DNA from: a virus
Virus genome (UHGV): UHGV-0059448
DNA length: 29,315 bases
Direction: 5' to 3' (one strand)
A program made the position numbers and the translations under genes. Below, one piece after another: positions 1-23,465 of the stretch; position 1 is the first letter of the stretch, and every line of letters begins with the position of its first letter. Under the pieces are notes generated by a model that made no database searches, was not told the origin of the DNA, and was given only the letters and a program-made list of their open reading frames with translations.

Positions 1-201
1 TTATACAGAGTTGAGAGCCCTACTCCATACGTTTTTGATACGCTTTGTCGTGATCCACCGGTTGGCCTCATCGGGTGACATGTCGTGGTTAAGCGCGGCG
101 AGGTTGCGCACGAATGCGCTGGTCCGGACTATCTTGCGGCCAGACGGCTCGCGGGTGATCGACCTGTTGAAAGCTGAGATTTTATCGTCGTAACGCGGCA
201 T
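1..201 (-). CDS. small basic protein (66 aa) immediately downstream of a LexA box; function unknown, candidate SOS-induced regulator
   Basis: ATG at 201..199 with AGGGAGG Shine-Dalgarno about 5 nt upstream; 66 codons to TAA at 3..1. The ORF-track entry 1..264 begins at a TTG; the ATG with the strong SD is preferred. Arg/Lys-rich product not recognised as any named family. Confidence 0.6.
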   Translation of the reverse strand: MPRYDDKISAFNRSITREPSGRKIVRTSAFVRNLAALNHDMSPDEANRWITTKRIKNVWSRALNSV

Positions 202-16282: not shown

Positions 16283-17212
16283 GCTTCCTCCTCGGGAAAT
16301 CATCGTTCGTTTGTTAATTGCATCGCGCATAACGTTCAGCGCATCCATGTTGTTGACCAGCTGCTCCGCCAGGCCGTTGTCAACTGATTCCTGGCCTGAA
16401 AAAACAGCTGCTTCAGTATCAAGAACGGCCTGAACCGACATGCCGGTATAACCCGCCACCTTTTCAGCGAACATCTGCCGGGTAGCGTCGATACGCGCCT
16501 GAAAATCTGCGCGTACCTCTTTGGGTAATTTCTCGTAGGGGTTCCCGTCCACCTTGTGATCGCCGCTGTAAATCAGCGTGACCTCAACGCCGCTGGTTTT
16601 AAGGGCGGCGCCGTAATTGCTGTGGGCCATCATGACCCCGATGGATCCCGTTCTGGCCGTCTGGGTCACAAGCCGACGTGATGCCGCACTGGCAATCAGC
16701 TGGCCAGCGCTGCAGTTCATATCGTTGGCTAACGCCCAGATGGGTTTGATATCCCGCATGCGGGCGATGATGTCCGCACAGTCAAAGGCACCCGCCACCA
16801 TTCCACCTGGCGTATCCATATCCAGAAGAATGCCGTCTACACCCGGATCGCTGATTGCCTGCTGGAGGCGGGCGATGATGCCGTTGTACCCCGTCATCCC
16901 CGAATACGGCTGGAGTGAGCGGGTTTTACTGACCAGCGTCCCGGAAACAGGCAGCACCGCGATACCATCAGTAACCTGGTAGCTTCGCGCTGGTTTTGGG
17001 CCCATGTCCTCATCATCACCAAAGAGAGCCAGCGGTTCAGCCATCTGCTCTGCACCTAGCGTCACGCCCGACACGGTGTCGGTCAGACGGGTGATACCTA
17101 ACTGACCAGCGAGAGCACAAAAGAAAACCCGCGCATAGGCGGGTTCAAGTAAAAGCGGCTCATTGAAGGCCATACTGGCAATGTGCGGGAGATTACGCAG
17201 CTCTGGCGTCAT
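15875..17212 (-). CDS. C: prohead protease C (ClpP/S49-like)
   Basis: ATG at 17212 ([19 protein letters not shown]...) with GAGGAGGGG SD, preferred over the upstream ATG at 17227; DMDTPGGMVAGAFD motif; overlaps the 3' end of B. Confidence 0.95.
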   Translation of the reverse strand: MTPELRNLPHIASMAFNEPLLLEPAYARVFFCALAGQLGITRLTDTVSGVTLGAEQMAEPLALFGDDEDMGPKPARSYQVTDGIAVLPVSGTLVSKTRSLQPYSGMTGYNGIIARLQQAISDPGVDGILLDMDTPGGMVAGAFDCADIIARMRDIKPIWALANDMNCSAGQLIASAASRRLVTQTARTGSIGVMMAHSNYGAALKTSGVEVTLIYSGDHKVDGNPYEKLPKEVRADFQARIDATRQMFAEKVAGYTGMSVQAVLDTEAAVFSGQESVDNGLAEQLVNNMDALNVMRDAINKRTMISRGGSMKGTTASADTTQPAASADQTVTTVDVPAAVVTDPAAGATVDISSQVAAAVAAENGRIMGILNCEEAKGRESQARALAETPGMTVESAQRILAAAPLSAQARTDTALDRLMETAPGTITAGSASAEAGDDLLNTPV

Positions 17213-18785: not shown

Positions 18786-18988
18786 GCGTAAAATCCTGCC
18801 GGTCCCCGGCGTCGTGGAGTGGTGCCAACCTGTGACTCAAGTTCGGCAATGTATTTTTTCAGGTCACTGACGGAGGTCGCGGTAAACTCAACCCGCCGGC
18901 CGTCTTTTTGCACCGTTGCCACCCGCTTTCCCATCATGAGATCGTGCAACGCAGCGCGGGCGGCATCCAGATCAGTCTGTGTCGCCAT
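18782..18988 (-). CDS. W: head-tail joining protein W
   Basis: 68-aa ORF; [42 protein letters not shown] as in lambda W. Confidence 0.95.
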
Positions 18989-20910
18989 TATTCATCTCCA
19001 GATAATGCCCTGGCATAATCAGCCAGGGTTTTGTTATTGGTCCGGTTCCCCTCTTCCTCCAGTAGGCTCGCGAGCAGTGAATCAAGATTCAGTTGCCATC
19101 GCGAAATACTGATCCGCAGGGCAGCCAGCGCGTACACGAAGCAGTCCAGCGCCTCATTTCGTCGCTTTTTGCTGTCCCAGACGATTTTCTTACGCCCGTC
19201 CACCCATTTTTCAACCTGCTCCTCAGCAGTAAGCTGCTGCGCCTCAGCCAGATCATAAATTTCGGGGTTATTGGGAAAATGCACGGCACCGGCAAGAGGT
19301 TCACTCCCTTCCGGCTGAAGTGTGAAGCGGTTATAAATCTGCTCCTTTGCGGTATCAGTCCCCACTTCCGTCAGATAAACGCCGTTCTTGTTGCGTTTAC
19401 GCGGCATATTCGCGACAGGCTTACCGTAAACGGAAGCCCCTTTAATCGGGATCACGCGAAACAAACCATGCTTTTTTGAGCGATTGTAGACAATGGTGGG
19501 GTCAATACCGCCGATATCCCAGCAGATACGGGATACCGACATTTCCACGCCATTCTTTCGGAGATAGGTTTTGTTAATCGCCTCGTCCACCCTGACGAGG
19601 GTCGCTTCATCATCATGACGGCCCATAATGATCTGCCGGTCAATCAGCCAGCTTTCCTCACCGGGCCCCCATCCCCAGACGCGCATTTCATATCGATCCA
19701 GTTGGGAGTCGATCCCGGCTGTCAGATAAGCAACACGCTCCGGTACGGATGCCCCGAAGAACTCTTTGCGTTCGGCCATGAGCTCCGCGTCAGGCCGTTC
19801 ACCAATTTTAGGCTCCCATGTTTCGCCCAGAGTGGTGTTCACGAAGGTTTTACGCTTTCCTGTATCCCCTTTCGTTTTTAGCCAGTCTTTAACGATCTGA
19901 ACCCAGGTGGTAAACGGGCTGTATGCCGTCCAGATGTGAAACGTCACGCTGTCTGGCGGGTCGATTTCGGTGCCTGTTGATGAAAACCAGGATAAACCGT
20001 CGCGCGTCCAGATCCCGGTGGTGTCGCAGATGTAACGAGCTTCAGTGAAATCCAGCTCCTGCTGCTTAATGACGCAGGCATTATGTTCACACAGGTAAAA
20101 GACGCTGGAGGGTTCGCCCGGTGTCCATTTCAGCCCGAACGGGGTCTCTTTGTCGCCGAATTTAAGGTACTGCTCTTCACCACAGTGCGGACAGGCAACA
20201 TGAAAACGCATGAAATGCCCGGACTCGCTGGCAGCACGCTCAATCTGGCAGGTCCCCTTTGTTTTTGGCGTTGAGCCGCGAATAGATTTGGGCCAGACAG
20301 ACCCCTCAATACGTTTATCACCCAGGAACGTCGGGGATCCCTCTTTCTCAATATCTTCATCGAATGCCGCCAGTTCATCGTAACCGGCGACATCGACCGA
20401 TTTCTCACGATAGTTTTTCGCCGCTTTACCACCCAGACACCAGAACCCGCGACCGTTGGAGAAGCGTTTCATACTGAGCGTATTGTCCCGGTGCTTTTTT
20501 CCATACCAGGGGGCCAGCGCCAGAAGTGACGGAATATCGCGAATCGTCGGCTCAACATGCGACTTCATAAAGTTTTCGGCGTCACCATCAGTAGGCAGCC
20601 AGATAAGGGAATTTCGCTGCTTGTGCTGAATAAAATACGCATAAACACCCAGCAACATTTTTGAATAGCCAACACGGGCAGACTTAACAACGTTGACCTC
20701 ACGTATGTAATCGTTACCCATCGCATTCATGATCGCGCGTTGAAACGGCAACGTTTCCCAGCGCCCTTCCTGGTAGGCCGACTCTTTGGGGAGATAGTAA
20801 TTATCGTCTGCCCATTCAACCGCCGTTTGCGGCTCAGGTCGGTACAGCGAAAGTAGACCCGCGCGCGCAGAGTGCTGCAGCCCCTTAACCTGACTGTTCG
20901 ATATATTCAC
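18988..20910 (-). CDS. A: terminase large subunit A
   Basis: 640-aa ORF starting at a GTG (20910..20908) that overlaps the Nu1 3' end, as in lambda; MNISNSQV... and extended collinearity with lambda A as recalled. Confidence 0.97.
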
Positions 20911-21430
20911 TCAGCAACCCCGGTATTATTTCATCCAGCGCAGCTGCTTTGTTCATGGCTTTAATGATGTCCTTCTTGAGGAAATCAATATGTCGGTTTT
21001 CCAGCTCCGGGAAGCGCCGCTGAACCGACAGAGGAACTCCATCAAGAATGCTGGCTACTTCTCCGGCCATCCGCGACAGCACGAACGTGCAGAATGCGGT
21101 TTCCACCACCTCAGCGGAATCTTTTGCATTTTTTAGTTCCTGGGCATCTGCCTGCGCTCGGGTGAGGCGGTGACGCTCATAGTCAATCGTACCAGGCTGA
21201 AGGTCGGATTCCGATGCAAGACGAAGGTCTTCCACCTCCTTCCGTAATTTCTCATTCTCAATCGCCGCGTCGCGTGCGGAATACCATTCGATAGCCGCGG
21301 AAGATTCATAGAGGACCTCATTACCTTTTCCACCGCCACGTGCTACAGGCATTCCCTGATCCTGCCAGTTCTGAATGGTTCGCACGCTGACCCCAAATAT
21401 TTCAGAAAGACGCTTTTTGTTGACCTCCAT
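20885..21430 (-). CDS. Nu1: terminase small subunit Nu1
   Basis: 181-aa ORF beginning MEVNKKRLSEIFGVSVRTIQNWQDQGMPV... (HTH), ending ...SEYIEQSG as in lambda Nu1; first gene after cos. Confidence 0.95.
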   Translation of the reverse strand: MEVNKKRLSEIFGVSVRTIQNWQDQGMPVARGGGKGNEVLYESSAAIEWYSARDAAIENEKLRKEVEDLRLASESDLQPGTIDYERHRLTRAQADAQELKNAKDSAEVVETAFCTFVLSRMAGEVASILDGVPLSVQRRFPELENRHIDFLKKDIIKAMNKAAALDEIIPGLLSEYIEQSG

Positions 21431-21650
21431 AGCTCACTCCATACACAAAAACAGAGAAAGGAAACGCCCTCTGGCTATTTAGCCGTTTTTAAGGCTTATC
21501 ATTTCCTTTCTTTTCAGGGGGTGTTTACAGTTAAAACAATGAATTAGCGAGAAGAAGAACGGAAACGGCAAATGCCTGAAAATTTTCATAAATAGCGAGA
21601 ATCTGCGCGGACGCCGCCCCGTAACAAGGCGGATCGCCGGAAAGGACCCG
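21431..21650. other. cos: cohesive end site cos (cosB-cosN-cosQ region)
   Basis: Plus-strand CGGACGCCGCCC at 21608..21619 (minus strand GGGCGGCGTCCG) differs at 2 of 12 positions from lambda cosN GGGCGGCGACCT as recalled; flanks toward Nu1 contain lambda-cosB-like strings (TTTCGCTATTTATGAAAATTTTC on the minus strand). Confidence 0.8.
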
Positions 21651-21677
21651 CAAACGACAATAATTATCAATTGCACA

Positions 21678-22406
21678 CTATCGACGGCACTGCTGCCAGA
21701 TAACACCACCGGGGAAACATTCCATCATGATGGCCGTGCGGACATAGGAAGCCAGTTCATCCATCGCTTTCTTGTCTGCTGCCATTTGCTTTGTGACATC
21801 CAGCGCCGCACATTCAGCAGCGTTTTTCAGCGCGTTTTCGATCAACGTTTCAATGTTGGTATCAACACCAGGTTTAACTTTGAACTTATCGGCACTGACG
21901 GTTACCTTGTTCTGCGCTGGCTCATCACGCTGGATACCAAGGCTGATGTTGTAGATATTGGTCACCGGCAGAGGTGTTTCGATTGCCGCTGCGTGGATAG
22001 CACCATTTGCGATAGCGGCGTCCTTGATGAATGACACTCCATTGCGAATAAGTTCGAAGGAGACGGTGTCACGAATGCGCTGGTCCAGCTCGTCGATTGC
22101 CTTTTGTGCAGCAGAGGTATCAATCTCAACGCCAAGCGTCATCGAAGCGCAATATTGCTGCTCACCAAAACGCGTATTGACCAGGTGTTCAACGGCAAAT
22201 TTCTGCCCTTCTGATGTCAGAAAGGTAAAGTGATTTTCTTTCTGGTATTCAGTTGCTGTGTGTCTGGTTTCAGCAAAACCAAGCTCGCGCAATTCGGCTG
22301 TGCCAGATTTAGAAGGCAGATCACCAGACAGCAACGCGCCACGGAAAAACAGCGCATAAAGCACTTCATTAGCAGCGCCAGATAGCGTAATGATTTTGTT
22401 ACTCAT
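21678..22406 (-). CDS. hypothetical protein (243 aa), function unknown
   Basis: ATG at 22406 (MSNKIITLSGAANEV...) with AAGGAAA SD, preferred over the upstream start at 22445; lies between an upstream terminator and cosQ; not recognised as any lambda gene. Confidence 0.7.
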   Translation of the reverse strand: MSNKIITLSGAANEVLYALFFRGALLSGDLPSKSGTAELRELGFAETRHTATEYQKENHFTFLTSEGQKFAVEHLVNTRFGEQQYCASMTLGVEIDTSAAQKAIDELDQRIRDTVSFELIRNGVSFIKDAAIANGAIHAAAIETPLPVTNIYNISLGIQRDEPAQNKVTVSADKFKVKPGVDTNIETLIENALKNAAECAALDVTKQMAADKKAMDELASYVRTAIMMECFPGGVIWQQCRR

Positions 22407-22517
22407 GGAATATTTCCTTTTAGGCGTGAGCCTGTCGCACAGCAAAGCCGCCGAAAGTTAACGGTTTGCCCAGGCTCACAACTGAAAGACTTTCTACGGT
22501 GTGCGCGTGCGATGCGC

Positions 22518-22562: not shown

Positions 22563-23465
22563 TTAAGACTGGATATTCCAAATCATTGCGTTACCGTTAT
22601 GATTTTCAATGATTTTTGCCAGTGGTGCTCCACCAAAAGAATGCATGTAGCTGTGATGTATAGTCAAAACCAAATCTTGAAGTACTTGATCACTTTCAAG
22701 TTCGGTAACATTCAACCCAATTTTCTGCGCCTTATCAAAATGAATATGACGCGAGTGGGTATAGGTTGTGTGATGGTTGTTTAACTCTGAACAAACATGT
22801 GTTGCTTTTGATTCTGCCTCAGGATCATTATCAAACATGCCTGTCATAAGCCAATGCTTAACAATCTCATTTGCCCATTTGATTGCTTTCTCACACTCGC
22901 CGATGATCGTCGGGTTTAGCTTTTGAAGAATGAACTGCCACATCTGAACAGCTGCGGGATTTTGAAAAATTTCCGTCTGCGCACGATTCCATTCTTCAAT
23001 GATGGCATGGGTGGAGAAACCGTTGAACTGAGGATCAATTGGGCCAATGTTGGACTGTTTACCCATGATGATTTCATTGGCACAACATGCAAGCATAGTT
23101 CCGCAGGACATTGAAATCATAGGAACAATTGCTCTGATGTTAGTTCCAAACTTCGACCTTAAGTAATGCCCGATTGATTCCAAAGCGGCAATATCACCAC
23201 CTGGAGTATGAAGTATCAAATCCAACCCTTTTGATACATCTAAACCATTGATGGCTGTCATCAACCCGTTCTTATCATCATCAGTCATCTGAGTAAGATG
23301 GCGTACTTCTGCACCACCATGCTGTAACCACCCTGAGTAATATGTGATTACATTTCTTCCAGTATGATTCGAAAGTTGAGATAAGTATTTACGGCGAACC
23401 TCATCCATAGGACTTTTATGGGCGAGAGCCGTTATCTCGCCCAGTACGTCGCTCCAATTAGGCAT
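22563..23465 (-). CDS. ClpP-fold serine peptidase-like protein (S49 / serine dehydrogenase proteinase-like), accessory
   Basis: 300-aa ORF, ATG at 23465; motifs LILHTPGG and ISMSCGTMLA followed by IGPIDPQ resemble the oxyanion/nucleophile regions of ClpP/S49-family peptidases; lower GC than structural genes; second such protease in the window besides C. Family assignment is from motif recognition only. Confidence 0.65.
   Translation of the reverse strand: MPNWSDVLGEITALAHKSPMDEVRRKYLSQLSNHTGRNVITYYSGWLQHGGAEVRHLTQMTDDDKNGLMTAINGLDVSKGLDLILHTPGGDIAALESIGHYLRSKFGTNIRAIVPMISMSCGTMLACCANEIIMGKQSNIGPIDPQFNGFSTHAIIEEWNRAQTEIFQNPAAVQMWQFILQKLNPTIIGECEKAIKWANEIVKHWLMTGMFDNDPEAESKATHVCSELNNHHTTYTHSRHIHFDKAQKIGLNVTELESDQVLQDLVLTIHHSYMHSFGGAPLAKIIENHNGNAMIWNIQS

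Follow-up and report, generated by a model that had tools for sequence, protein, structure and literature searches.

The elements conserved among the lambda-like phages are cosQ, the cosN left half and the CG dinucleotides on either side of cosN, and natural differences in bp 7-12 of cosN are both common and tolerated (Feiss et al. 2015, PLoS One, PMC4669245). The same work reported that the cohesive ends of N15 and phiD326 differ from that of lambda at bp 9 and 12, and that nicking of the bottom strand is insensitive to the sequence of the right half of cosN because the small terminase subunit (TerS), bound at cosB, anchors the large subunit (TerL). Equal phage yields, i.e. 103 to 132 pfu per cell, were obtained with cosN-lambda and cosN-N15 (PMC4669245, Table 4), in tests employing lambda terminase and lambda-N15hy4 terminase, both of which contain TerL-lambda and not the TerL of phi80. 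A chromosome bearing two different ends still cyclizes and replicates, with an approximately fourfold lower yield, and both alleles segregate among its progeny (PMC4669245). The GenBank record of N15 (AF064539) itself carries a note that its end differs from that of lambda, and in both the phi80 and the N15 records bases 1-12 are annotated as a single-stranded 5' extension.

Here we analyse a cos site in a virus genome, UHGV-0059448, of which the whole stretch studied, of 29,315 nucleotides, is termed the window. A reading of the sequence had proposed a lambda-type cos site in the region 21431-21650, with a cosN differing from that of lambda at two of its twelve positions, and had suggested that such changes, in the cohesive end and in the adjacent cosB, might alter terminase specificity and compatibility with helper phages or cosmids. 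The comparisons below indicate that window 21454-21649, on the minus strand, very probably serves a phi80-like lambdoid prophage as its cos site, that it would be used via the standard lambda pathway, and that its cohesive-end allele can be expected to be functionally neutral.

Identification of the cos site

The strand, which the original prediction did not state, is the minus strand; with both strands of window 21200-21900 read, the cohesive end GGGCGGCGTCCG was found to run from 21619 down to 21608. In a megablast search of window 21300-21750(-) against phage records, phi80 matched with 99.4 % identity. A four-way alignment reveals that window 21380-21619(-) shares 238 of 240 bases with bp 1-240 of phi80 (JX871397), the only two mismatches within these 240 bp being cosN bp 9 and 12, at which the window has the bases of N15. 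In lambda (NC_001416), bp 1-12 are GGGCGGCGACCT, from which the window differs by A to T at bp 9 and T to G at bp 12, the other ten of the twelve cosN bases, including all of bp 1-8, being as in lambda. The proposed lambda-type site is thus borne out, with cosQ, R3, I1, R2, R1 and the Nu1 start all at lambda-like positions (Table 1), as are the two differences from lambda; realignment gave no exact identity with the lambda cosN, and alignment with N15 gave an identical 12-mer.

Table 1. Positions of the cos subsites and terminase genes in the window
Feature	Window position	Strand	Phage bp	Description
A (TerL)	18988..20910	-		Terminase large subunit, 640 aa, cosN-nicking endonuclease; PHROG 15, E 0
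Nu1 (TerS)	20885..21430	-	ATG at 190	Terminase small subunit, 181 aa; PHROG 57, E 1e-71
cosB R1	21454..21469	-	151-166	GGGCGTTTCCTTTCTC
cosB R2	21497..21512	+	123..108	TATCATTTCCTTTCTT; inverted relative to R3 and R1
I1	21534..21546	+	74-86	IHF-like site AAACAATGAATTA, between R3 and R2; 12/13 match to WATCAANNNNTTR
cosB R3	21555..21570	-	50-65	Predicted TerS binding site, TGCCGTTTCCGTTCTT
CG dinucleotides	21620-21621 and 21606-21607			Conserved, on either side of cosN
cosN predicted nicks	21620/21619 (minus strand); 21608/21607 (plus strand)
cosN cohesive end	21608..21619	-		GGGCGGCGTCCG; N15/phiD326-type allele, T9 and G12
cosQ core	21643..21649	-	-30..-24 (offset from bp 1)	GGGTCCT, packaging termination signal; sequence and offset as in lambda

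The 12-mer taken alone is at chance level, with 23 matches of at most three mismatches in the window compared with 28 ± 6 expected, and the argument for the site therefore rests on its 240-bp context. A second match to the lambda cohesive end with two mismatches, GGGCGGCGCCGT, is located at 16603..16614 (+), in the gene of the head protease (gpC-like), and is without cosQ or cosB flanks; it was rejected as a chance occurrence.

In terms of sequence, every element of a lambda-like complex cos was found, i.e. cosQ, cosN, the R3-I1-R2-R1 spacing, and adjoining Nu1 and A genes; the region 21431-21650 extends from the base adjoining the Nu1 start codon to just beyond cosQ. The cosQ core falls within the region annotated as 'cosQ; aka R4 region' in phi80 (JX871397), and R2 and R1 overlap repeats annotated as IR1 in phi80, at bp 109-118 and bp 156-165, respectively. 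Bp 53-65 of R3, which include the functionally defined bp 56, 58 and 59, are the same as in the lambda R3 and are at an equal distance from cosN, the lambda R3 coordinates (bp 50-65) being taken from PMC9026076. The cosB next to the cohesive end is thus unaltered relative to phi80, and its R3 core is that of lambda. The cos sites of PICIs have cosQ and cosN followed by the rpp gene, without R sequences or terminase genes (PMC9026076); a PICI cos was rejected, since the window has R3, R2 and R1 and, after them, the Nu1 and A genes and a complete module for head and tail.

Window position 21619 is homologous to the first base of both phi80 records (JX871397 and FN582354). By analogy with the ends of the phi80 and N15 records, the virion ends of the present prophage would lie at the predicted nicks and have 12-nt 5' overhangs; likewise, the prophage is presumed to be active and to be cut at these positions.

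A 76-aa open reading frame with a GTG start crosses cosN (window 21479-21709, minus strand). Since terminase cuts within this frame, the call is likely to be spurious. An open reading frame at the corresponding position, also spanning cosN, is annotated in mEp237 as the 'hypothetical protein' mEp237_063 (JQ182730, 44066-44281).

Terminase genes and prophage context

The TerS encoded next to the site is 100 % identical to phi80 Nu1, 93.9 % identical to that of mEp237, 85.6 % to lambda Nu1 and 55 % to N15 gp1. TerL is 98.3 % identical to phi80 gpA, 89.9 % to lambda gpA and 88.3 % to N15 gp2. All 10 of the differences between TerL and phi80 gpA are located in the C-terminal fifth of the protein (aa 532-639); aa 532-536 are QPEGS in the window and VAQRD in phi80, with many synonymous changes nearby, and a further five substitutions lie on the C-terminal side of this block, which resembles a small patch of mosaic recombination.

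On the minus strand the genes are ordered RusA, Q, holin, endolysin, Rz, two accessory genes, cos, Nu1, A, and the head and tail genes. The open reading frames are full-length, and Nu1, A and those downstream are uninterrupted and at the positions of the annotated head and tail genes of relatives. DNA identity over the head and tail module is about 90 % to mEp237 and HK225 and 87 % to N15; the window is a mosaic lambdoid prophage with structural genes of the phi80/N15 group. It has no verbatim copy, as a whole, in complete E. coli genomes, where the best hits reach about 95 % identity across 84 % of the query. The integrase and the immunity region are absent from the window, and a tRNA scan of the window found none.

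The two accessory genes (21678-22445 and 22563-23465, minus strand) lie between Rz and cosQ, and their PHROG matches are all of unknown function. The 255-aa accessory protein occupies the position of phi80 ORF x171.28, which is annotated as similar to N15 gp59, and also that of a 'Fur-regulated protein' in the P27 prophage; the 300-aa accessory protein corresponds in length and position to the RefSeq 'SDH family Clp fold serine proteinase' of the P27 prophage.

Many lambdoid prophages of enterobacterial genomes are defective, and the window is without an integration and immunity region, so the site might be a relic that has been retained by descent and is no longer cut or packaged in its host. 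The intactness of all the cos subsites and the uninterrupted state of Nu1, A and the downstream open reading frames stand against this, as do the near-identical cos regions of phi80, mEp237 and HK225, which are isolated, viable phages; we therefore consider a relic unlikely.

Distribution of the cohesive-end allele

The original prediction implied that the cohesive end is unusual; it is, however, the documented N15/phiD326 cohesive end and a common natural allele. The idea of a rare or novel variant was rejected after phage records, E. coli genomes, IMG/VR and GTDB genomes had been scanned. The T9/G12 12-mer is present in N15, mEp237, HK225 and E. coli prophages, as well as in genomes of Kluyvera cryocrescens, another Kluyvera sp., Buttiauxella and Dryocola, and its two characteristic bases recur in at least 50 IMG/VR contigs.

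Two scans of IMG/VR concerned the distribution of the alleles, which are designated here by their bp 9-12, i.e. TCCG in the window and ACCT in lambda. The first, with a pattern allowing any base at bp 9 and 12, returned at least 120 loci. Among the matches listed, sites with the lambda-type right flanks CGCGG, CGCGC and CGCGT had ACCT in 115 of 116 cases, and T9-bearing alleles were found solely on the CGCAG flank, i.e. that of the phi80/N15 lineage. The second scan, which was specific to the phi80/N15-type flank CGCAGATTCTCGC, also returned at least 120 loci, and the allele frequencies from both scans are those of samples rather than of a census. Among the matches listed, TCCG was present on this flank 52 times, ACCT 48, TCCT 12 and ACCG 8 times; the respective non-redundant counts, over 102 flank haplotypes, were 43, 42, 10 and 8. 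On the phi80/N15-type flank the T9/G12 allele is thus, among the matches listed, about as frequent as the lambda allele, with both intermediates present. The window's own combination, TCCG with a complex lambda/phi80-like R3, accounted for 43 of 56 TCCG sites among the matches listed from IMG/VR. One sequence that matched the flank pattern, AGGCGGCGGCCGCGCAGATTCTCGC in a Lentisphaeraceae MAG contig (CAZTHR010000043.1, locus L243), has GC-rich surroundings that do not resemble a cos and was set aside as a chance match.

The two polymorphic positions are 3 bp apart, and one identical flank haplotype, spanning -60 to +200, carries both of the main alleles. The occurrence of all four combinations at bp 9 and 12 (IMG/VR loci L010-L240), together with a single flank haplotype bearing both main alleles, implies that cosN has changed repeatedly or has undergone exchange in very short patches.

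In the public sequences, the cosN allele is uncoupled from TerS, TerL and cosB. Among the matches listed, a TerS identical to that of phi80 occurs with ACCT (18 cases), TCCG (5) and ACCG (3). The exact cosB haplotype of the window (bp 13-200) was encountered eight times among the matches listed from IMG/VR, with TCCG in three cases and ACCT in five. With respect to TerL, the proteins of one TCCG locus (L202) and one ACCT locus (L240) are identical, and an ACCT locus (L141) has a TerS identical to that of the window (TCCG) and a TerL one residue apart. A search for co-variation between the allele and the terminase proteins found none, the maximum mutual information of any TerL column with either position being 0.38 bit, compared with a label entropy of 0.99 bit. 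This uncoupling is in line with published work, according to which there is no sequence selection on cosN bp 7-12.

Functional consequences of the allele

By analogy with lambda, TerS (Nu1) would bind the cosB sites R3, R2 and R1, and IHF would bend the DNA at I1; the cosB-bound TerS would anchor TerL (gpA), which would make two nicks, 12 bp apart, in cosN. In the present case, terminase of the phi80 type, acting on a cosB of the phi80 type, would thus produce ends of the N15 type. According to the published work, the right half of cosN should be without sequence selection, TerL being positioned by the cosB-bound TerS, and for this reason the allele is expected to be neutral with respect to both cutting and packaging. 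For the cutting mechanism and for the neutrality of the allele we draw on the literature, whereas the sequence, the subsite positions, the identities and the allele distribution are observations made here. The sole documented effect of the allele would be a modest drop in infectivity for chromosomes that receive one end of each type. Predicted duplex free energies are -19.9 kcal/mol for the allele of the window and -19.0 kcal/mol for that of lambda, compared with about -15.2 kcal/mol for the mismatched pair, in which 10 of 12 bp are paired; these values are consistent with a residual ability of mismatched ends to anneal.

Should virions be formed, perfect annealing of their DNA is expected with ends of the N15, mEp237 or HK225 type, and imperfect annealing (10/12 bp) with those of lambda or phi80, at a cost, from the published data, of about fourfold in yield and with no block to packaging. 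The site fixes the ends of the prophage genome, the packaging module of which is that of phi80; beyond annotation it is of little importance. The small addition made by the survey is that, among the matches listed, T9/G12 is restricted to the CGCAG-flank lineage, where its frequency is about that of the lambda allele, and is uncoupled from TerS, TerL and cosB.

The allele distribution, close to 50:50 among the matches listed on the phi80/N15-type flank, with both single-step intermediates and with either allele on identical cosB and terminase backgrounds, also suggests a speculative and improbable reading, in which the bp 9/12 alleles go beyond neutral drift and constitute a balanced 'end-type' polymorphism, reflecting switching at heteroduplex ends or a weak compatibility barrier. 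Switching may occur when packaging begins at a cos of one type and finishes at one of the other, as in mixed concatemers or tandem prophages, with subsequent replication or short-patch nick translation; alternatively, the roughly fourfold cost of mismatched ends might maintain a weak barrier among co-resident lambdoid prophages. If such a polymorphism does exist, the window is one sample of it.

The proposal that T9/G12 changes terminase specificity, and so defines a compatibility group separate from the lambda and phi80 groups, is in our view very unlikely. Specificity can in principle change along with cos, as between lambda and 21, but there the difference resides in cosB and TerS (PMC4669245), and both TerS and cosB of the window equal those of phi80. 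Mismatched lambda/N15 ends do give an approximately fourfold drop in yield, and the predicted annealing energy falls from about -19 to about -15 kcal/mol; however, yields were independent of whether cosN was that of lambda or of N15 (PMC4669245, Table 4), and since phage yield is unaffected by the cosN difference, a change in packaging specificity, or in compatibility with helpers or cosmids, is not supported. Moreover, in public sequences either allele accompanies an identical TerS, a nearly identical TerL and an identical cosB, and covariation with the allele was seen at no TerL residue.

An origin of the two differences in sequencing error, or in resemblance by chance, which the poor distinctiveness of the 12-mer alone (23 matches against 28 expected) might be taken to favour, is refuted with near certainty by the independent recurrence of both bases in N15, mEp237, HK225, E. 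coli prophages, other genomes and at least 50 IMG/VR contigs.

Comparison with known cos sites

Among the known cos sites closest to that of the window is the one of phi80, with cosB (R3, I1, R2 and R1), its spacing, the flank CGCAGATTCTCGC and Nu1 over its first 51 bp equal base for base, and cosQ also the same; the difference lies in cosN bp 9 and 12, which are A and T in phi80 and T and G in the window. The phi80 prophage of DH10B differs from the window by six substitutions in 1,140 bp around cos, of which two are bp 9 and 12 and three, at -57, -39 and -36, lie within 400 bp upstream of cosN.

Lambda shares with the window the cosQ core and its offset, the left half of cosN, the flanking CG, bp 53-65 of R3 and the R3-I1-R2-R1 layout, with the Nu1 start at bp 191 compared with bp 190 in the window. 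It differs in that identity over bp 1-130 is 99/130 and that upstream of cosN 35/60, and in that R2 and R1 differ at several positions.

N15 has the same 12-base cohesive end, GGGCGGCGTCCG, as the window, and 39 of the first 41 bp match. In contrast with the complex R3-I1-R2-R1 cosB of the window, its cosB is simple, with a single R3-N15 (GAGGTTGTTGTT, bp 48-59) and no IHF site; gene 1 of N15 begins at bp 89, and the two TerS proteins share only 55 % identity. A simple cosB of the N15 type, or N15 specificity, was accordingly rejected for the window, which shares with N15 the cosN allele but not the cosB; because its cosB and TerS are not those of N15, the window would not be assigned to the N15 packaging-specificity class.

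mEp237 and HK225 resemble the window in having the TCCG cohesive end on a complex lambda/phi80-like cosB, but their R3 region (CATTTCCGTT) is diverged. Their records (JQ182730 and JQ086371, respectively) begin at, or close to, the first codon of Nu1 rather than at the cohesive end, the mEp237 Nu1 coding sequence beginning from base 1, and their cosN (TCCG), about 190 bp short of the record's end, is unannotated. In E. coli P27_L1_05.20 the prophage likewise has the TCCG end on a complex cosB, and its 341-bp cos region is 99.7 % identical to that of the window, with one base, at -39, differing.
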